A stretch of 9,284 nucleotides of DNA from a virus (taxonomy: Duplodnaviria; Heunggongvirae; Uroviricota; Caudoviricetes). The notes under the pieces were generated by a model that was given only the letters and a program-made list of their open reading frames with translations, was not told where the DNA came from and ran no database searches. The stretch lies in the IMG/VR virus record IMGVR_UViG_2778261085_000014. One strand, 5' to 3'. Positions 1-9,284 of this stretch are shown one piece after another (the stretch's first letter is position 1; every line of letters starts with the position of its first letter). The translations under genes were made by a program, and so were the position numbers.

Positions 1-51
1 AACAAATCAAAAGGGGTTTTAATAACTGGCTCAAAGCTGAAAGCTTTCCGG

Positions 52-81
52 AACCCCCAGCCTAGCTGGGGGTTTTCTGTG
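52..81 (+). terminator. Rho-independent terminator-like hairpin: stem AACCCCCAGC / GCTGGGGGTT, 3-nt loop CTA, then TTCTGT
   Basis: Perfect 10-bp GC-rich inverted repeat (52-61 / 65-74) followed by a T-rich run on the plus strand; the minus-strand side has no T-tract. Likely ends a plus-strand gene lying upstream of the window. Confidence 0.5.
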
Positions 82-744
82 CACAAAAAAGTTTTATCTT
101 TACTAAAGATAAAACATAATAATTATGCTGCAGCGCTGAATTTTGACAACAAAATATATGAACCAGCAAATATTGTTGCAAATGAGCTCAGGAAGAAAAA
201 CAAAAAATTAGTTATATTTAACCCTTATGGCTCTCAGAATAGCAGAACCTTATCTGATGAACAGATAAACAAAGTACTAGCTTACCTTAATAACCTTAAG
301 GGATATCACACAATAGTTTTTAATATGGGAAAACAGATTAATCACAATGGATTGGATAATGTGTCTCTATCTCCATTTTCTGATGCAGGATGTTCATTTG
401 CATTGGTTCGTCATGCTGATTTTGTTATAACTGTAGATACTGCTATTGTACATTTAGCCAGTGCATTAAACATTAAACAATACTGTATATATAATAACAG
501 AATGCATGAAGGAAAATTCGAAAACAATATTGTGTGGGGGCCAAACAGCAAATTAGCGACTCAACTCACCACATCCGAACATCTAAGGTCTGAAGGGGGC
601 GACGATATGCATAAATTCGACATAATGATCTTAATTAATGCTATCAAACAAGATTTGACAAACGATATACCGAATTACCACTCGGATTTAGGTTGTAAAA
701 ATAGATCCAGAAACCCAGAATTAGAAAGTAGCAATTCTTTATAA
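79..744 (+). CDS. AT-rich ORF encoding a glycosyltransferase family 9 (heptosyltransferase-like) C-terminal domain; probably 5'-truncated or a stand-alone domain; start uncertain (GTG at 79)
   Basis: Translation contains KKLVIFNPYGS and ADFVITVDTAIVHLASAL, which resemble the nucleotide-sugar-binding C-domain of LPS heptosyltransferases such as WaaC (compared from memory). Only about 40 residues precede the C-domain motif, so the N-terminal acceptor domain appears absent. The frame is open back to position 1, but a GC-rich hairpin sits immediately 5'. Composition is visibly AT-rich against the adjacent GC-rich tail genes. Confidence 0.5.
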   Translation: MHKKVLSLLKIKHNNYAAALNFDNKIYEPANIVANELRKKNKKLVIFNPYGSQNSRTLSDEQINKVLAYLNNLKGYHTIVFNMGKQINHNGLDNVSLSPFSDAGCSFALVRHADFVITVDTAIVHLASALNIKQYCIYNNRMHEGKFENNIVWGPNSKLATQLTTSEHLRSEGGDDMHKFDIMILINAIKQDLTNDIPNYHSDLGCKNRSRNPELESSNSL

Positions 745-780
745 AGTAGAAACCTCAACAGTTTTATCAGGGCCTACGAT

Positions 781-831
781 ATATTATATAACAACAAGCC
801 GCCCATTACCCAATATGAGGGTATTGGCGGC
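781..831 (-). terminator. Putative terminator of the tail operon after U: imperfect GC-rich hairpin followed by a T-rich tract on the minus strand
   Basis: Minus strand just after the U stop reads GCCGCCAATACCC-tcatatt-GGGTAATGGGCGGC then TTGTTGTTATATAATAT. Arms span 798-811 and 819-831 with one mismatch and one bulge. Confidence 0.4.
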
Positions 832-840
832 AATGTAAAA

Positions 841-1335
841 TCAGAACAGTCCTTTAACTGAACTGGCCGCGCTGTTAAGGGATGATGTCACCTTATCTTT
901 GAAGCCGGACAGCATATCGCTGAACGATGAGGATTGCAGGCGCTCCCGCAAATCCTCATCACAGCGTTCAAGAGTCAGTGAAAATTCTATCTTTTTCGCC
1001 TTACCGTAGCGATCAAACTCGGAGCGGGTCGTATTCGTTTCAGTCAGGACATACATGCCGTAAATCTGCCCGACACCATCAATCAGAGGCCAGGGCCGCC
1101 CTGTATATGCCTGCGTGGTCAGCAGCGACAGCGACACTTCGCCACCTGTAATTTCAGGATAAAGCACACCAGAAAGAACGATGCGATCATCACCTGCACC
1201 GATATACTGCCAGCTTGCTGAACGGTTAACGCGTTCATTTTTCACATGCCGCCAGCTTTTGTTTTGCTGTAACTGCTGATGCGGCAGTGTGCGCAGCTCA
1301 AAAACAAACATGCCGTAGATCATCATCATGGCCAT
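841..1335 (-). CDS. U: Phage tail protein, P2 gpU-like
   Basis: 164-aa ORF starting 6 nt after the tape-measure stop, in the position and size expected for P2 gpU (downstream of T in the FI-FII-E-T-U-D operon); assignment is by position and size, no specific motif checked. Confidence 0.75.
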   Translation of the reverse strand: MAMMMIYGMFVFELRTLPHQQLQQNKSWRHVKNERVNRSASWQYIGAGDDRIVLSGVLYPEITGGEVSLSLLTTQAYTGRPWPLIDGVGQIYGMYVLTETNTTRSEFDRYGKAKKIEFSLTLERCDEDLRERLQSSSFSDMLSGFKDKVTSSLNSAASSVKGLF

Positions 1336-1341
1336 GACTCC

Positions 1342-4185
1342 TCAATCTTTATCGTAAAAACTTCCACGCCCGGCACGGGCGCGCCGTTCCATTTCTGCCC
1401 TGACCATTTCACCGACCAGTTTCGCCAGTTCGCGGGGATTCTGCGTAACAACGTTATGCAGATGAACATGAATTTCACCGCCAAATCCGGAGGCAACAGG
1501 CTCCCGGTTACGGGAAGTTGCAGGAACTGATGCCACTGGCGATCGTATGGCCTCTGCCACCGGGCGGGAGCTGGCCGCAACAACAGGGACCAGCGCCGGA
1601 GGCAGCGGAGCCGGAACCACAGGTGTGATATTAATTGCGGGGGCAGGCTTACTGACCTGCGCAATCTTCCGCTCCTGCCACTCCCCACGAACAGCAAGTG
1701 CGCGGGGCAGGTTCTTAAAGACAATATCGCCGGGGCCAATGCGTTTTTTCGTCTCATCAACCAGCTTACCTGTGTTATCAGCAATTTTGCTGAGTCTGCG
1801 CAGCGTACCGGTATTGCTGTCTGTGAGCGGTTTATTGTCTTTGGAGTTATCACCTCCGGTGCCATTGCCATTTTCCACAGGCTTCGGCGGATTGATTTTC
1901 GCCAGGTCCCCCTGAAGCAAGGCAACCTTGTCCTGAAGAATGGCCGCACGCTGTGCGTCTTCGATTTTCTTGCGCGCCCTTTCCGCTTCATCCGGAAGGA
2001 CGCCAAGTTTTTCAAGTATCCACGCCAGCGTATCCAGCAGCATTTTGGCAGGTGTCAGAACAAGCTGTAACGCACCGCCAAGAACGTTACCGAATATCTC
2101 GCCAGCACTGGTACATTTATCCAGCGTTTCCTTGCTGGACTCCATCGGTGACAGCAGCGATTTAAACCAGTTAAACACCTGGCTGATCCCGCTCCCGATT
2201 GCGTCAAAAACAGGACCAAACCGTTCAAAGGTTTCGCGCAACGGGGCCAGCCTTTCCATAATCCCGCTGAACACCCCGGCAAAAAATGCCCTGATGGGAT
2301 CCCAGTATTTCCAGATAAGAACGGCAGCTCCGGCAAGCGCAGCCACGATAAGACCAACCGGACTGAACAACGCCCCGATAGCGCCTCCCAGCAAAGAAAC
2401 AGAACCCGCCACCATTCCCCACAGCGCAGGCAACACCCTGACGACATTCATTGACCGGGTAAGAATGTCAAAACCAAGACGCAGGGTGGCCAGCTTCCCG
2501 TAAAGCACCCCAATAACCAGCGACAACGAGCCAATCGTTGCAGTCATTGCCAGCAACGCACCGCCTGCTATCAGTAGCTGGCGCGTCAGTACCGGATGGG
2601 CCTGCGCCAGCGAGGTGATTTTTTCAAGCACCCGCGTGAGCCACTGCGTGACAGAACGCAGCGGACCGTCAACCAGATCACTGATGCGAATACGAAGACC
2701 TTCCCATGCGCTGTCGAGATTTTTCAGGTCCCCATCAAGATTATCGGCCATTACTTTTGCAACGCGATCGGCCTCTCCCCTTGCCCCCTGCAATTCTCTG
2801 GTCAGTTTTTGCAGCTCTCCTGAACCAGCCGCCGCAACAAGCGTCTGCAAACCAACGAACGCCTCTTCTCCGGCGATGTCCTTGAAGAAGGAGACCTGGT
2901 CCACCTGTCCGTATTTTTGTGTCGCCTTATAAAGATCAAGCAGCACATCCTCCATCGGGCGCATTTTGCCTCTGGCGTCAGCAACTGACACCCCCAGCTC
3001 TTTCAGTGCATCAGCCGCAGCTTTTGGCGGTGATGCAAGGCGGGACAGACTTGCGCGCATGGCCGTACCAGCATCGCTTCCGCGAAGACCATTATTGGCA
3101 AGCATCCCGGCCATGGCCGCCGCTTCTTCAAGACTGATACCAAGTTTTGCGGCAACCGGACCGGTATACTTCATGGTTTCGCCCAGCGCGCGTAAATCAG
3201 TATTGGTCCGGGTGAATACTGCTGTCAGCGTATCGCCAACCCGGTCCATTTGATCGGCTGTCAGGTTGAACTGTGTGAGGATATTGGAGCCTATATCAGC
3301 CGTCTCGCCGAGTTCGACGCCACCTGCCAGCGCCATATTAAGAACACCGGGCAATGCGGCCTGAATGGCCTGCGGAGTAAAACCAGCCATTGCCAGAAAA
3401 CTCTGCCCACTGGCGGCATCACTCGCAGTAAACTGTGTTTCAGAGCCAAGTTTTAACGCCTGCTCACGCAGCGCCTTAAACTGCGGGCTGTTTTTGTCGA
3501 TTCGCGTCAGTGCCTGAACGCGGGACATCTCTTTCCCGAACCCGATCGCGGGCTGCAAAAAACGTCCGGCAGCATAGCCGCCAGCCGCTGCCGCACCAAT
3601 TGCCAGCGCACCACCTGTTTTCAGTTTTCCCGCAGTTTCCTGCGCGCGCGAATACCGCTCACGCGCCCGCGTTACACGCGCAAGCGCCTGCCGTTCGCGT
3701 TCAAGCTGGTTGTTGTATTGTTCGGTGCGTCTGATGGCCTGCTGAATGGTGTTATCGCTGCCTGTCAGGGAAATGCCGTGGCGTTTCAGCTCTCCGCCAA
3801 GCTCCCGCATTTTCTGAATTTCCCGTGTGCGCGATTCATTCAGGCGTTCAAGCCGGGTGCTTAACTGCTGCATCAGCTTTTGTTGTTTTTCGCTGAGCAC
3901 TGTACCCGTGCGTTGTAACTGATTAAGGGCGTTAAGCTGGCGTCGTGCTTTCACGATACCCGCATCCGCTTTACTGACAGCGTCGCGGGCGCGCTCAAAT
4001 GAACGCGCCTGACGCTCGAGATTTTTGATCGCCCCCTGCGTTCGCTGGATGGAGTCACCAAACTGCCCCATCAGGCGGCGGGCGTTTTCGGCAGGCCGGG
4101 TCAGCCTGTCAACGGCGCTGAAAGCGACCCGGATATCAAGAGTCTTCATTGTCTGCATTCCCGCTGCGAAGTGCCGCCCGCTCAC
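1342..4185 (-). CDS. T: Tail tape measure protein, P2 gpT-like
   Basis: 947-aa ORF with a coiled-coil-like N-terminal region, a conserved tape-measure core (for example LTAVFTRTNTDLRALGETMKYTGPVAAKLGISLEEAAAMAGMLANNGLRGSDAGTAMRASLSRL), long hydrophobic Gly/Ala-rich segments and a Pro/Ala/Val-rich C-terminal stretch. Its start overlaps the E' frame as in P2. The start codon could be the internal Met at MQTMKT. Confidence 0.9.
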   Translation of the reverse strand: MSGRHFAAGMQTMKTLDIRVAFSAVDRLTRPAENARRLMGQFGDSIQRTQGAIKNLERQARSFERARDAVSKADAGIVKARRQLNALNQLQRTGTVLSEKQQKLMQQLSTRLERLNESRTREIQKMRELGGELKRHGISLTGSDNTIQQAIRRTEQYNNQLERERQALARVTRARERYSRAQETAGKLKTGGALAIGAAAAGGYAAGRFLQPAIGFGKEMSRVQALTRIDKNSPQFKALREQALKLGSETQFTASDAASGQSFLAMAGFTPQAIQAALPGVLNMALAGGVELGETADIGSNILTQFNLTADQMDRVGDTLTAVFTRTNTDLRALGETMKYTGPVAAKLGISLEEAAAMAGMLANNGLRGSDAGTAMRASLSRLASPPKAAADALKELGVSVADARGKMRPMEDVLLDLYKATQKYGQVDQVSFFKDIAGEEAFVGLQTLVAAAGSGELQKLTRELQGARGEADRVAKVMADNLDGDLKNLDSAWEGLRIRISDLVDGPLRSVTQWLTRVLEKITSLAQAHPVLTRQLLIAGGALLAMTATIGSLSLVIGVLYGKLATLRLGFDILTRSMNVVRVLPALWGMVAGSVSLLGGAIGALFSPVGLIVAALAGAAVLIWKYWDPIRAFFAGVFSGIMERLAPLRETFERFGPVFDAIGSGISQVFNWFKSLLSPMESSKETLDKCTSAGEIFGNVLGGALQLVLTPAKMLLDTLAWILEKLGVLPDEAERARKKIEDAQRAAILQDKVALLQGDLAKINPPKPVENGNGTGGDNSKDNKPLTDSNTGTLRRLSKIADNTGKLVDETKKRIGPGDIVFKNLPRALAVRGEWQERKIAQVSKPAPAINITPVVPAPLPPALVPVVAASSRPVAEAIRSPVASVPATSRNREPVASGFGGEIHVHLHNVVTQNPRELAKLVGEMVRAEMERRARAGRGSFYDKD

Positions 4186-4665
4186 GCCAGCTAACCACTT
4201 CGCCGGGCGTCATCATGAAGATTTCGGCGGGCGACCAGTTAAAAATAACGGCAATATCTGCCACAAAGTCTTCTATGTGCTCAAAGCACACAACCGTGAT
4301 CAGGCTTCCGTCGCCTGTTCGTTCTTCCCGCCAGAGTCCGCACCGCTCAAAAAATTTACGGCAACCACACATAACTGAATAAAGTCACGGGATGCCATTT
4401 TTTTGATCGTCACTTCATCCAGTCGCGGTGATGTCACGCGTGACAGCAGCGTAAACATGGATTCCGCTTTCAGATTCAGCACATCAGACAGCGACAAATC
4501 TCGCAGAGATCCAGCCTGCTCAATAGCTCCAGTGATCTCCACATACGTGATTTTTTCGCCGCCTCGCTCAATTGATTGGGTAAGTTTTACGCCACGCTCA
4601 CTGGTTTCTTTCACAGTGTCAGCAACGACCGTGTTTTCGGTATCGATGTTTTTCGTCTCTTTCAT
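4136..4665 (-). CDS. Tail assembly chaperone E+E' fusion made by programmed -1 ribosomal frameshift (E frame 4665 to about 4351, then E' frame to 4136)
   Basis: The E frame (stop at 4300) and the overlapping 78-codon E' frame (4372-4136) share the heptamer T TTT TTG at 4348-4354 on the minus strand. In the E frame it reads AAT TTT TTG (N F L); a -1 slip gives TTT TTT GAG, which continues in the E' frame. Same arrangement as P2 E/E' and lambda G/GT. Confidence 0.6.
4300..4665 (-). CDS. E: Tail assembly chaperone, P2 gpE-like (unshifted product)
   Basis: 121-aa acidic ORF between tube and tape-measure genes. Strong SD (AAGGAG) 7 nt upstream of the ATG on the minus strand. Slippery heptamer near its 3' end. 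Confidence 0.75.
   Translation of the reverse strand: MKETKNIDTENTVVADTVKETSERGVKLTQSIERGGEKITYVEITGAIEQAGSLRDLSLSDVLNLKAESMFTLLSRVTSPRLDEVTIKKMASRDFIQLCVVAVNFLSGADSGGKNEQATEA
4348..4354 (-). other. Slippery heptamer T TTT TTG for the E to E+E' -1 frameshift
   Basis: Plus strand CAAAAAA at 4348-4354 equals minus strand TTTTTTG, lying exactly in the E/E' overlap with the phase that shifts the E frame into the E' frame. Confidence 0.6.
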
Positions 4666-4719
4666 CAGGAAACTCCTTTCAGTCAGAGGCGACGCACTGC
4701 GCCGCCTGCATATTACTTA

Positions 4720-5232
4720 TCAGCCAAGCCCGAGCGCAGAACGGATGCGATCGGGCACAATGTCCTTGCCGTCCTTCCGGTAAATGAAGTTCAGCAGGTC
4801 AATCTCCCACAACGGGCGATCGTTAACACTCAGCTTGTAGTAGGTGTTTTTAATGGCGTAAGTGTGTGATGTGGCTTCGCCCTGTTTGGCTTCCCCCATA
4901 TCAATTTCCGTCACACGTCCGCGCATTTCGACTTCATACAGGTCGCTTTCTGCATCGGTGTAATATTCACCCGCAAAACGCAGCAGCGTGCCATCAATCG
5001 TGCCGCCATACTTAAGGAACAGCTCACGAACTGCGCCCCCCATGACAAAGCTCGCATCAAGCGCGGAGTCGTCCAGACCGAGATCAATACTTACCGCACC
5101 CATCATGCCACCACCCCGGTAGCTGTCGGTTTTGCGCGTCAGCTTAGGCAGAGTGACGGACGTCACCTTACCCACTTCGTTTTCACCATCCACAAACAGC
5201 GTAAAAAAGCGAAGATGTTTTGGCACAGCCAT
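4720..5232 (-). CDS. FII: Contractile tail tube protein, P2 gpFII-like
   Basis: 170-aa ORF directly downstream of the sheath gene. Its start overlaps the sheath stop (minus strand TGATG at 5230-5234), suggesting translational coupling. Size and position match P2 FII. Confidence 0.9.
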   Translation of the reverse strand: MAVPKHLRFFTLFVDGENEVGKVTSVTLPKLTRKTDSYRGGGMMGAVSIDLGLDDSALDASFVMGGAVRELFLKYGGTIDGTLLRFAGEYYTDAESDLYEVEMRGRVTEIDMGEAKQGEATSHTYAIKNTYYKLSVNDRPLWEIDLLNFIYRKDGKDIVPDRIRSALGLG

Positions 5233-6416
5233 CAGGCACCTCCCAGCACCGCAAATGCGGGTTCAAAGTATTCATCAGTAAACGTCTGGTAAAGCTCCAT
5301 GTCTTCCAGTGGCGGAACGGGCGTATATTTGTAGCGAATACGCACACGTCCCTGACGTAAATCCGTGGTGCTGTTATCCACCACGTCATACCAGCACTCC
5401 GCGCCAATCAGTTTCCCGGCAGTCACCAGCGAATCCAGTTTTGCCCTGATGGCACTGATAACATCCTTCACGTTCGCAGGCGTCAGTGGACTGTCGATGG
5501 TTTCAAACTGCGCTTCCGCAATTGAATCAGCCAGCACCTGTGCGGTTCGGGTATACACCTCAAAGATGTAGGCGTTCGTTTCCGGTGTGCGGTTGCCCCA
5601 GAAGCGGAACCCGTTGCGACGAATAATGGTCGTGATTTCTTTGTTGTTAAGGCTGTTGGCATCACTGTCTTCGGCCTGCAACGACCAGAAAACATGCCTC
5701 GACATCCCCAGCACATTTTTAACCGGAACGTTGGACAGCGATTTGTGCCATCCCTGCTCATGGTCAATGTACGCACGAAGACCGCACGCATAGGCAGGCG
5801 CGGGGAACGTTTCGTTTTTGCCACTTTTCGGGTTGTAGGCGATGAAGTCCGGCCATAAGAGCATCACCTCACGTTCGTTGAATTTCTGGCGGTAGGTAAT
5901 CGCCGCAGCCATCGTGTTACAGCCGTGACATGAGGCATACACAAACGCGCGCAGTTTACCTGCAATCACGCACAGGGATTTTGTTACAGCCTCCGTGTCC
6001 AGCTCCGGCGCGGCCAGAATACGCGGACGGTATCCGATGCTTTCATCCTGCTCTGCAACAAGCAGCGCATACATCCCCGTATAGCTGCCGTCATCCTCAG
6101 AACCACCGATAACCAGTTGATCCTGCGTCTTTCCGTCTTCTTCTTTGTGTTCAGCCACGCGAACGACGATCACCTTTGTGCTCACCTGGTCTGCGATGGC
6201 CTTAAGCGCACGATAAAGCGTCCCCGTTGTCCCGCATTTTCCCAGCACGTCATTGACGCGGGTCAGCAGTGTGGGCTTGTTCAGCGGGAACAGCTTCGCG
6301 TCCGCATCATCCGCCGTTGCCACGATACCGATAACGCTGGAATCAACATCGTTAATCGCTGTTACCAGGTCGGTATTTTCCGTAACACGGGCACCATGAA
6401 AACGAGTTTCACTCAT
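5232..6416 (-). CDS. FI: Contractile tail sheath protein, P2 gpFI-like
   Basis: 394-aa ORF with AAGGGG SD upstream of the ATG on the minus strand. Size, position (first gene of the operon, followed by tube) and translation fit the tail sheath family. Confidence 0.9.
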   Translation of the reverse strand: MSETRFHGARVTENTDLVTAINDVDSSVIGIVATADDADAKLFPLNKPTLLTRVNDVLGKCGTTGTLYRALKAIADQVSTKVIVVRVAEHKEEDGKTQDQLVIGGSEDDGSYTGMYALLVAEQDESIGYRPRILAAPELDTEAVTKSLCVIAGKLRAFVYASCHGCNTMAAAITYRQKFNEREVMLLWPDFIAYNPKSGKNETFPAPAYACGLRAYIDHEQGWHKSLSNVPVKNVLGMSRHVFWSLQAEDSDANSLNNKEITTIIRRNGFRFWGNRTPETNAYIFEVYTRTAQVLADSIAEAQFETIDSPLTPANVKDVISAIRAKLDSLVTAGKLIGAECWYDVVDNSTTDLRQGRVRIRYKYTPVPPLEDMELYQTFTDEYFEPAFAVLGGA

Positions 6417-6573
6417 AGCTTCAGCCCCTTGTATCCGTTAAATGATTCGGCAACAATCATCACCCACCACGCGCGTAATCTCACCCCTGCGCCATTCTCC
6501 CGCCACGGCGACAACAAAAAGCAGTAACCCCCTCCGCACGTACATGCGACCATGCCACACAGGGAGGGAGCAG

Positions 6574-7683
6574 ATGACCGACACCACCATGCAATTGCTC
6601 AGTCAGGGCACAGACCCCGTAAAAATGCCGGATTTTGATATTCTCGCGGAGGGTAAAACGCTGTCAGGCGTGGCAGAGCGCCTGATGAGCCTGTCACTGA
6701 CCGACAACCGGGGATTTGAGGCAGACCAGCTCACCATCACGCTGGATGATGCGGATGGTCAGTTGCAGCTACCGCCACGGGGCGCACGCCTGACGGTTCT
6801 CATTGGCTGGAAAGGCGAACCGCTGACAGAAAAAGGCACTTACATTGTTGATGAAATCGCTCACGAAGGACCACCGGACAGGCTGACTGTTTCAGCCAGA
6901 AGCGCAGATTTTCGGGATGAATTTAACGTTAAACGAGAGGTGTCCTGGCATGATGTGACCGTTGAGCGTGTGGTATCCGCCATCGCTCATCGGTACGGTC
7001 TGAAACCGCAAATCAGCGAAATGCTGATGGATATCGAAATCGACCACGCCGACCAGACCGAAGAAAGCGACATGTCCTTCCTTACGCGCATGGCGGAAAT
7101 GCTGGGCGCAATCACCACGGTAAAAAGCGGCAATCTGTTATTCATCATGCCAGGTGGTGGCGTGAACGCGCAGGGCCAGCCGTTGCCCTCGTTCGCCATT
7201 ACACGCAGCAGCGGCGATCGCCATCAGTTCCGCATTGCTGACCGCGAAGCGTATACGGGGGTACGCGCTTACTGGCTTGATCTTAATTACGGGAAAAAGA
7301 AAAAAGTCAGCGTGAAACGCCGCAAACCGCCAAAACCCAAAAAGGAGAAAAGCAGCAGCCGTGAAGGTGATTATATGGAAGGCGCGGAAGGCAATGTGTT
7401 TGTGTTACGCAAGACTTATCAGAACGAGCAGGCAGCAAGACGCGCAGCGGCGGCAAAGTGGCAGCAGCTACAACGCGGAGCCGCATCATTCTCCATCACA
7501 CTGGCACGCGGACGCGCAGAACTCTACCCCGAAATGCATGGCACGGTAACAGGATTTAAAAGCGAGATTGATAATCAGGACTGGATTATTGCAAAAGCCG
7601 AGCACACCATTGATAACAGTGGCTTTACCACGCAGCTTGAGCTTGAAGCCAAAATCCCGGAATGGATAGCAGAAACAGAGTAA
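6574..7683 (+). CDS. D: Phage late control gene D protein (gpD, Mu gpP-like tail/baseplate protein)
   Basis: Translation contains blocks typical of the gpD family (RLMSLSLTDNRGFEADQLTITLDDADGQ, SARSADFR, SWHD) and a Lys-rich linker. Start chosen at ATG 6574, which has an AGGGAGGG SD 5 nt upstream; the ORF track's 6442 is just the first in-frame ATG. Confidence 0.85.
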   Translation: MTDTTMQLLSQGTDPVKMPDFDILAEGKTLSGVAERLMSLSLTDNRGFEADQLTITLDDADGQLQLPPRGARLTVLIGWKGEPLTEKGTYIVDEIAHEGPPDRLTVSARSADFRDEFNVKREVSWHDVTVERVVSAIAHRYGLKPQISEMLMDIEIDHADQTEESDMSFLTRMAEMLGAITTVKSGNLLFIMPGGGVNAQGQPLPSFAITRSSGDRHQFRIADREAYTGVRAYWLDLNYGKKKKVSVKRRKPPKPKKEKSSSREGDYMEGAEGNVFVLRKTYQNEQAARRAAAAKWQQLQRGAASFSITLARGRAELYPEMHGTVTGFKSEIDNQDWIIAKAEHTIDNSGFTTQLELEAKIPEWIAETE

Positions 7684-7877
7684 ACAACTTAGATGCATTA
7701 GCCCTGACATTTGCTAACGCGCTTACAGCAAGAATCATAACCAATCTGACAGCCTACCCGGTGTCAAAATCAGAAGAGCCTTACATTAGAATATGTTAAT
7801 TTGTAGCAAACAAATTTACACACAAATGATTACTGCTGAAATAGCCCCCATAAATGCTATGTCAAAGGATCCATGTT

Positions 7878-8543
7878 ATGAATATGCAAATTTTTATCGC
7901 ACCAGCAGCCACAGTTGCTGCAGTCTGCCTTGCTGCATATTTTGCTTTACGAAATGAACGTAAAAAGAAAGCACTTGAGATTAGAACAACTCAACTAGAT
8001 CGAATATCTGAGCTAGTAAACCGAGCATCTACCAATTTGATGCAATATACAGGTACTCTTGCCTCTATACTGGAAGCGCACGCCAAAGATAATTATCTAC
8101 CGAACAAAAAATTTGACATTAATGTAATTAGCAAATGGAAAGATTGCCTCGATGAGAGTGAGGTCTGGGCGATTGATATACAGCAACTAAGAACATGTCA
8201 GCACAGTCTGGAGTTTCATCGTGAAAAAGAATGGGCTGAATGGAAAAAAATAATTCCACCATTACTTGATAAAATTAACCAATTTTTTCTCATATCTAAG
8301 CCAGGGCAACCTGTTACGTTTATAAATGGCCAAAACAAAACAGCTGATGAACTACTTGTTTTCTCAAGATATTTGAGAAAACAAACAGCAGAAATTGAAT
8401 CAGTACGTCAGCTGTTACTTTCTCAAATGAGAGAGGAATTCATCGAGTTAACTAGCTTTGAACCTGTCACAATGTTTAGCTTATTTAAATCAATAAAGAA
8501 AAATGTCATGCAATTTTTCTGTATCAGTGCTCTTAAAAATTGA
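7878..8543 (+). CDS. Hypothetical membrane-anchored protein with no recognised family; AT-rich cargo gene inserted between D and ogr
   Basis: Uninterrupted 221-codon frame from ATG 7878, with SD-like AAAGGA at 7864-7869 (8-nt spacer). N-terminal hydrophobic helix IFIAPAATVAAVCLAAYFAL followed by a basic stretch, then a charged soluble domain of about 190 aa. Markedly AT-rich versus flanking D and ogr, and followed by its own terminator. Confidence 0.65.
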   Translation: MNMQIFIAPAATVAAVCLAAYFALRNERKKKALEIRTTQLDRISELVNRASTNLMQYTGTLASILEAHAKDNYLPNKKFDINVISKWKDCLDESEVWAIDIQQLRTCQHSLEFHREKEWAEWKKIIPPLLDKINQFFLISKPGQPVTFINGQNKTADELLVFSRYLRKQTAEIESVRQLLLSQMREEFIELTSFEPVTMFSLFKSIKKNVMQFFCISALKN

Positions 8544-8692: not shown

Positions 8693-8953
8693 ATGTTCCG
8701 TTGTCCGCTTTGTGGCGCATCTGCCCGTATCCGCACCAGTCGTCCGGAAAATGATTCAAACACCGTGCGGCAAAAGTATTACCAGTGTAACAACCTGGAA
8801 TGCGGCGTATGCTTCTCAACACTGGAAGCTTTCCATAAATTCACATCGAAACACGCCTCCGGCATCTACTCTTCAGAAGGTATCCCGTGGCATGAGCTGC
8901 CAGCTTCACACAGGGGAAACAATCAGATGAGCTTGCCTTTACCTCAGAATTAA
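8693..8953 (+). CDS. ogr: Ogr/Delta-family zinc-finger late transcription activator
   Basis: 86-aa ORF starting MFRCPLCGASARIRTSR...YYQCNNLECGVCF, with the Cys-x2-Cys ... Cys-x4-Cys arrangement and N-terminal MF-CPLC signature of P2 Ogr. Strong SD AAGGGAGG 5 nt before the ATG. Confidence 0.85.
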   Translation: MFRCPLCGASARIRTSRPENDSNTVRQKYYQCNNLECGVCFSTLEAFHKFTSKHASGIYSSEGIPWHELPASHRGNNQMSLPLPQN

Positions 8954-9013: not shown

Positions 9014-9226
9014 ATGGTCGGAGGGAATACCCGAAGGCCAGATGTGGAAAGGCCCCGGAAAACATCTCTGTTTAACCGAGGCCCTAACCGCATTACCTTG
9101 ACAAGTGAAAGGTTAGCGCCTCTCCGGAAAAGGAGCAAGTGCTATGTCGCAAAAATCGCTTACGGCCATCACGTTCTGCGTGACGGCAATCCTCATCATC
9201 TGGATGTTGCACGGTTCGCTGTGTGA
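9014..9226 (+). CDS. mok-like reading frame overlapping the hok-like toxin gene; true start uncertain
   Basis: 70-codon frame beginning about 130 nt upstream of the hok-like ATG and ending inside it in a different frame, mirroring the mok/hok overlap of plasmid R1 hok/sok. Called from architecture only. Confidence 0.25.
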   Translation: MVGGNTRRPDVERPRKTSLFNRGPNRITLTSERLAPLRKRSKCYVAKIAYGHHVLRDGNPHHLDVARFAV

Positions 9227-9284
9227 AATACGGATGAGCTTCTGGGGAGCGGAGTTTGCGGCGTTCTTACAGTGTAAGCAGTAA
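9144..9284 (+). CDS. Hok/Gef-family type I toxin (small membrane-depolarising peptide)
   Basis: Manual translation gives the 46-aa peptide MSQKSLTAITFCVTAILIIWMLHGSLCEIRMSFWGAEFAAFLQCKQ. It has an N-terminal transmembrane helix followed by the SLCEIR and E-x-AAF motifs characteristic of Hok/Gef peptides. AAGGAG SD 8 nt upstream. The stop TAA is the last codon of the window. Too short for the supplied ORF track. Confidence 0.65.
   Translation: MSQKSLTAITFCVTAILIIWMLHGSLCEIRMSFWGAEFAAFLQCKQ

Follow-up and report, generated by a model that had tools for sequence, protein, structure and literature searches.

The window analysed here, a stretch of 9,284 nucleotides, derives from a P2-like Escherichia coli prophage and opens with an AT-rich ORF that appears to encode only half of a glycosyltransferase family 9 (GT9) enzyme. 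The locus raises the question of whether this half-enzyme is a truncated conversion gene, a remnant of one, or a stand-alone domain that has been put to new use. The answer, which is very probably correct, is that a prophage GT9 gene was cut by IS200 at codon 173/174, leaving a recent, dead 3' fragment on a contig that is broken within the insertion sequence. A simple insertion is the most likely event and is assumed here, as the contig ends before the other side of IS200. The features on which this reading is built are collected in Table 1.

Table 1. Features at the left of the window; coordinates are window positions.
Feature	Position	Strand	Basis
IS200 left end (~IS200 nt 85 to 1)	1..84	-	100% identity over 1-90 to IS200C copies; Rfam RF01405
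IS200 left-end inverted repeat, bidirectional rho-independent terminator	52..74		fold; PMC4513863
A6 run, IS200/target junction	85..90		window aligned with the intact gene and with two further IS200 copies
3' GT9-like fragment, codons 174-392 plus stop, C-terminal Rossmann-like (nucleotide-sugar-binding) domain; pseudogene	85..744	+	L014 alignment, Pfam, model
GT9 signature segment, VDTAIVHL codons	433..456	+	invariance, profile alignments
Hairpin between convergent stop codons, carried by the GT9 cassette; closes the tail operon on the minus strand, with a T-rich tail after it	798..831		fold; invertase-slot comparison
gpU, last gene of the FI-FII-E-T-U tail operon of a P2-like prophage	841..1335	-	PF06995 Phage_P2_GpU, E 5.5e-39; synteny L004-L022

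The ORF at 79-744 is present as first described and its composition sets it apart, with 32.6% GC over 85-744 versus 50-56% in the flanking tail genes. The initial annotation also placed a GTG start directly against a GC-rich hairpin; the position was confirmed, but not its role as the start of a gene. Here, frame 1 is open from base 1, no upstream stop codon delimits the GTG at 79-81 as a start, and the 247-aa partial product reported by the gene caller in L021 corresponds to the open frame 1-744. Exact sequence look-up of the 221-aa product of ORF 79-744 returned no record. The only in-frame start candidates upstream of the GTG are TTG codons, which are antisense to tnpA and lie outside the window. 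Because the GTG lies inside IS200, it is not a gene start and its occurrence is fortuitous. The left edge itself is the edge of an assembly: the window is found at position 3 of draft contig NNXD01000017.1 (L021; assembly GCA_002486915.1) in reverse complement, so that its base 1 is 2 nt from the contig end, and the contig ends there because the short-read assembly broke inside a repeated IS200.

The assignment of the left end to IS200 comes from several comparisons. Positions 1-90 are 100% identical to copies at unrelated E. coli loci, one near carB in ATCC 11775 and the other near pheP in strain 7/2, both of which are annotated as IS200C. In a megablast search with 1-840, the segment 1-90 matched 9410 places in 2361 of the 5426 complete E. 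coli genomes, with up to 35 IS200-end matches per genome and 619 of the 9410 on plasmids. Such a multi-place pattern is the signature of an insertion sequence. On the minus strand, 74..1 matches the 5'UTR RNA element of the IS200 left end, STnc490 (Rfam RF01405), with 77.3 bits versus a gathering score of 56; the match is clipped by the window end. In the carB and pheP copies, tnpA is on the minus strand 60 nt past the equivalent of window base 1, and the tnpA of the window's own IS200 would sit further left, on the minus strand, beyond both the window and the contig end. Overall, the window shares with IS200 (IS200/IS605 family) an identical left end, the site of the terminator hairpin, the STnc490 match, a T-run flank and the disruption of a gene, but differs in showing just the last ~84 nt of the element. 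A whole IS200 would add the Y1 (HUH) transposase gene tnpA and a right end, and would have produced no target-site duplication. A classical insertion of this element in an enterobacterial gene is the polar hisD984::IS200 of Salmonella.

The GC-rich hairpin was found directly before the GTG, as annotated. It consists of a 10-bp G+C-rich stem (52-61/65-74) with a 3-nt loop (62-64), followed on the plus strand by TTTTCT (75-80), and folds with -22.6 kcal/mol (z-score -3.0). Ellis et al. placed the bidirectional terminator of IS200 at nt 12-34 of the 707-bp element (PMC4513863), and setting IS200 nt 1 at window 85 places these published nucleotides at window 74-52, with the inverted repeat beginning about 11 nt from the IS200 tip. 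The hairpin is IS200's own left-end terminator. Calling it terminator-like was therefore correct, while its origin in IS200, evident from the match to the published position (PMC4513863), had been missed.

The breakpoint is defined by an A-run. The three IS200 copies are identical through ...GTGCAC and the A-run and then diverge, and the intact GT9 gene meets the window at this same A-run. As the A6 run is common to the IS200 flank and the intact gene, the breakpoint is ambiguous between 84/85 and 90/91. The A-runs of the two other copies are A6 and A7, and in the orientation of the IS, three of three left ends (window 79-90, L002:6079-6100 and L003:3079-3100) adjoin a T6-T7 run, which hints at a target preference of IS200 for T-runs. 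By eye, the carB and pheP flanks past the T-run hold an inverted repeat, so that the run resembles the T-tail of an intrinsic terminator.

The identity of the interrupted gene is provided by related prophages, which were found by exact look-ups of the gpU and tape-measure proteins. An intact gene of 392 aa lies between the tail-fibre assembly gene and gpU in L001, L006 and L014-L020; of these, the L014-L020 prophages share the same 935-aa tape-measure protein and carry the gene in the same slot. Aligned to the intact L014 gene, positions 85-744 show 0 mismatches over 660/660 nt, comprising codons 174-392 and the stop codon. With no sequence decay in the fragment, the disruption is recent. More widely, 48 of the complete E. 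coli genomes match 85-840 at ~98.5% identity, the gene there being annotated as a 'glycosyltransferase family 9 protein' (WP_001100987.1). Comparison of this slot in related prophages thus supports the earlier proposal of a truncated conversion gene, as the GT9-like gene to which codons 174-392 belong is intact at the same place elsewhere. It had also been asked whether an N-terminal domain exists upstream of position 78: within the window the answer is no, as 1-84 is IS200, but the domain is present in the intact relatives.

Codon 173/174, where the gene is cut, belongs to the linker helix that joins the two domains; the whole of the C-domain is kept and none of the N-domain. After a simple insertion, the 5' half of the gene would be found about 0.7 kb away, across the IS. 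As the N-domain, native start codon and native upstream region are all absent, and a bidirectional terminator lies directly upstream, the fragment is best read as a silent piece of a pseudogene. Two further alleles are irregular. In L018 (13406-14700), the GT9 gene has a 1-nt deletion in an A-rich tract near its 5' end and is called as 361 aa, and the L022 contig ends inside the GT9 gene at the equivalent of window 587. Each may reflect an independent inactivation, an error in sequencing or a break in the assembly.

Membership of the GT9 family was established at the level of profile and fold. The window product matches Pfam PF01075 (Glyco_transf_9) at 27.9 bits versus a cut-off of 22 (E 1.9e-6), and of the 247 profile positions only 102-212, towards the C-terminus, are covered, in agreement with the initial view that only the C-terminal half of a heptosyltransferase-type enzyme is present. 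The intact protein scores 26.4 bits versus the same cut-off of 22, and the GT9-like family to which it belongs comprises 34 clusters at 38-97% identity. A fold search was needed to settle the family, because phmmer of the intact protein versus PDB sequences gave noise only and the WaaC matches in a profile search were weak (E ~0.09). Modelling used P0001, an intact relative that is 97% identical, with 33 homologues in the alignment. The AlphaFold2 model has a mean pLDDT of 90.2 and two Rossmann-like domains, and the top solved structures in Foldseek are all GT9, namely 3tov, WaaC (2h1h, 6dfe, 2gt1) and WaaF (1psw), with E values of 1e-13 to 1e-10 and target TM-scores of ~0.7. As modelled, the intact protein is a divergent GT9 enzyme with a GT-B fold; the window copy, which encodes residues 174-392 only, is without the full fold. 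With PF01075 above its cut-off and GT9 folds at the top of the search, the similarity noted for the 221-aa product is not spurious.

Each of the two domains carries a conserved motif. In the C-domain, V290, D291, T292, V295 and H296 of the signature segment are invariant in the 33 homologues. In profile alignments, D291 (window 436-438) aligns with Asp261 of E. coli WaaC ('VSVDTGLSHL') and the segment also aligns with 'TNDSGLMHV' of WaaF. In the N-domain, an invariant G58-D59 follows strand 1; as this pair is encoded ahead of the break, the window does not contain it. From the motif and predicted secondary structure, G58-D59 would be positioned like G12-D13 of WaaC. In WaaC, D13 of the N-domain and D261 of the C-domain are the catalytic residues, and GT-B enzymes need both domains.

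The named members of the family provide a measure of the divergence. Like WaaC, WaaF and WaaQ (CAZy GT9, PF01075), the intact relative has the GT-B fold, with 3tov, WaaC and WaaF as the best structural matches, a D-T/S-x-x-x-H-L segment falling on Asp261 of WaaC and, to judge from the motif and the predicted secondary structure, a 'GD' in a similar place after the first N-domain strand. It differs from them in being 12-16% identical, with sequence alignment only around the signature motif, and in equivalog scores of 21-27 bits, far below the cut-offs of 185-467. The NCBIfam equivalogs were missed at 25.2 versus 185.3 for TIGR02193, 27.1 versus 467 for NF007742 and 11.5 versus 437 for NF008204. 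By these scores, the intact protein has no orthologue among the named heptosyltransferases (WaaC, WaaF or WaaQ). It further differs in having additional elements at both ends, a basic N-terminal helix and a C-terminal tail, and in its prophage location beside tail-fibre genes, outside the waa cluster; the window copy in addition lacks the N-domain. The helix (P0001 residues 3-33; NRQRNIKTKKIKTK...) is long and very basic, is absent from WaaC and WaaF, occurs in the phage-borne GT9 family and might act as a membrane-surface anchor. The tail (P0001 residues 369-392, equal to window 670-741) is of low confidence and is found in the E. coli version. Among phage protein families, the intact protein matches PHROG 36326, labelled 'unknown function', and none of the PADLOC defence-system models matched it. 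A tblastn search of 50,697 phage records returned only Campylobacter phage matches of 22.6% identity, and therefore no sequenced free phage carries the GT9 gene.

To the right of the fragment lies the tail module of a P2-like phage. The ORF does converge on the tail operon as first noted, with gpU on the opposite strand and a hairpin between the two stop codons. Past gpU are the tape measure, gpE, tube and sheath genes, followed by gpD (6442-7683, +) and ogr (8693-8953, +). This P2-like order is conserved: PF05954 marks gpD and PF04606 marks Ogr in the window, and the domains of tape measure, gpE, tube and sheath are recorded for the syntenic genes of relatives. In canonical P2, the order H-G-FI-FII-E-T-U-D is found on one strand, and the Z/fun position is a variable cargo slot after the tail-fibre genes. 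The GT9 slot similarly separates the tail-fibre assembly gene from the sheath/tube operon and takes a cassette that is non-essential and can be exchanged, but here the FI-U operon is inverted and the slot consequently abuts gpU. Inversion of FI-FII-E-T-U relative to the tail-fibre genes, with gpD divergent from FI, is seen at window 841-7683 and in L004-L022, and is constant in all relatives seen.

Relatives with a 100%-identical gpU hold a Hin-type invertase and alternative fibre tips in this same slot. This holds for most of the same-gpU relatives (among L004-L013), in which a Hin/Cin-type invertase (Resolvase plus HTH_7) accompanies duplicated, opposed fibre-tip and Caudo_TAP genes. Host-range switching and GT9 are thus alternative occupants of one slot. 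The invertase-slot prophages lose homology left of ~833, that is, 5-8 nt before the gpU stop codon, and have a different hairpin there, while the hits H59 and H60 match from 823 onward only. With homology between the slot types resuming only at ~833, the GT9 cassette must include the hairpin at 798-831, which folds with -20.3 and -21.6 kcal/mol (z-scores -3.7 and -3.2). The P2 hotspot described by Rousset et al. 2022 holds old and tin genes, and the text of that paper makes no mention of glycosyltransferases or tail fibres (PMC9122126).

Other cargo was observed in and around these prophages. In L014 (15287-16189), and also in L015-L019, the tail-fibre gene H is separated from the tail-fibre assembly gene by a gene for a 300-aa Macro-domain protein (PF01661, E 7.7e-19; PHROG 2613, unknown, and PHROG 14717, 'tail protein'), a short way upstream of GT9; such a domain is unusual in a tail-fibre module. 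The interval from gpD to ogr holds a second AT-rich cargo ORF (7854-8543, +; 35.8% GC). Counted from its first ATG it encodes 229 aa, and the gene calls in relatives give 221 aa or 167 aa. Searches of Pfam, NCBIfam, PADLOC and PHROG produced no convincing match, and exact look-up of the 229-aa product found none on record. Relatives hold other genes in this position, among them those of a 527-aa GmrSD_N protein (L018) and a 340-aa protein (L005), and the region looks like a second variable, possibly defence, hotspot. At the far end, a 46-aa hydrophobic ORF (MSQKSLTAITFCVTAILIIWMLHGSLCEIRM...) at 9144-9284 (+) ends exactly at the window end. The syntenic ORF of relatives has a weak PF01848 Hok/Gef match and lies at the prophage edge, next to ihfA (L006, L014-L022) or serS (L004, L007); no Sok-type RNA reached the Rfam threshold.

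A history of the locus can be proposed from these observations. A P2-like prophage beside pheST-ihfA would have carried the AT-rich, 392-aa GT9 gene between the tail-fibre assembly gene and gpU. IS200 would then have inserted into the A6/T6 run at codon 173/174, with its left end facing the 3' part of the gene, giving the last ~84 bases of IS200 with their terminator, followed by codons 174-392. In this way, the fragment has lost the promoter, the start codon and the N-terminal acceptor-binding domain with its invariant GD, and the IS200 terminator insulates it from upstream transcription. The intact enzyme, in turn, is proposed to act at the cytoplasmic face, where it would add a sugar, either heptose or a different one, to the LPS core. 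Such a change in LPS may alter the receptor of LPS-binding phages, resulting in lysogenic conversion or superinfection exclusion, and the IS200 insertion would abolish it.

Instead of a primary insertion, recombination between IS200 copies could have removed or moved the 5' half of the gene, perhaps with neighbouring tail-fibre genes. That the contig ends inside IS200, that a single E. coli genome may offer as many as 35 IS200-end matches as substrates for recombination, and that IS-degraded or rearranged relatives are common (L001, L005, L009, L012) all fit such an event. It is nevertheless unlikely, since the break sits at a T-run like those of two other, independent IS200 left ends, as a primary insertion would be expected to do, the fragment has not decayed and the tail module in the window is otherwise undamaged. 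Far less probable still is that the similarity to GT9 is spurious and the frame a chance opening in AT-rich junk. The Pfam score is only ~6 bits above its cut-off and phmmer versus PDB sequences found nothing meaningful, but conservation of the family at 38-97% identity in 34 clusters, a confident structure model with GT9 structures as its top folds, and a signature motif that aligns with both WaaC and WaaF leave this idea next to no probability. The family, model and fold search together rule it out.

The initial annotation had also raised the prospect of a stand-alone or repurposed domain, for which no support was found. On this view, expression of the fragment would either start at the GTG at 79, giving a C-terminal domain by itself, or run on from IS200 as a hybrid ORF, and the product would have a new role, for example in sugar-nucleotide binding or as a dominant negative. 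Frame 1 does indeed continue without a stop from IS200 to the fragment, the GTG is preceded at 6 nt by a G-run, and the art200 promoter of IS200 faces outward (PMC4513863). However, the G-run and the GTG fall within or immediately behind the stem of a strong terminator, a bidirectional one that halts transcription coming from both sides, the upstream in-frame candidates are only the antisense TTG codons, and no gene with the 221-aa product is on record. The product would, moreover, be missing the invariant GD motif of the N-domain in an enzyme type that needs both domains. Finally, the IS200::GT9 junction was absent from all 5426 complete E. coli genomes searched by megablast, and is thus no selected, recurrent architecture. 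Expression as a stand-alone domain is highly improbable, and a gene cut by IS200 is the reading retained here.

The homologues of the intact gene bear on its likely role. Providencia homologues (51-53% identity) lie directly after tail-fibre and Caudo_TAP genes at the end of non-P2 myovirus prophages, which have a different type of baseplate (E217_GP41, Pam3_gp18) and are located next to smpB or mlaA. A homologue in Orbus sasakiae (44% identity) is chromosomal; its neighbours are a canonical GT9, a GT2 and two genes of the sulfatase family, with lapA/lapB close by. Because of the repeated coupling to tail fibres, the LPS-type context in Orbus and the GT9 fold, the intact protein is proposed to act on the LPS core: these features fit a cytoplasmic LPS-core glycosyltransferase that changes the phage receptor. 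When the region upstream of the intact gene was scanned for promoters, no consensus site emerged. In the literature on GT9 or heptosyltransferase conversion genes of phages and prophages, including two P2-hotspot papers, nothing was found on the present gene.

Known parallels include the GtrABC systems of P22/SfV-type phages and the O-antigen acetylases. Gtr systems, which modify the O-antigen, combine a GT2 enzyme with a flippase and a periplasmic GT-C enzyme. The GT9 gene resembles these in being a temperate-phage moron that is AT-rich relative to the phage and that plausibly alters receptor LPS. It differs from the Gtr systems, with their three components and O-antigen target, in being a single cytoplasmic GT-B/GT9 enzyme, and a domain search found no Gtr-type domains. 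Its target is more probably the core than the O-antigen. We suggest tentatively, as a possibility that is somewhat less than evenly balanced, that the intact gene belongs to an undescribed class of conversion factor, in which a single cytoplasmic GT9 moves together with tail-fibre modules among myovirus prophages that are unrelated, P2-like in E. coli and E217/Pam3-like in Providencia, and masks the receptor by remodelling the LPS core. If this is true, the IS200 allele of the present strain is a natural knock-out of a receptor-masking GT9.

For the window itself, the outcome is one more IS-disrupted prophage cargo gene, with part of its apparent truncation being the end of a contig, and the IS200 explanation disposes of the notion that half an enzyme was repurposed. 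The intact genes form a divergent, uncharacterised GT9 family that recurs just after the tail-fibre genes in different types of prophage. It is a reasonable candidate for modification of the LPS-core receptor, and this strain would offer a natural null allele for comparison.
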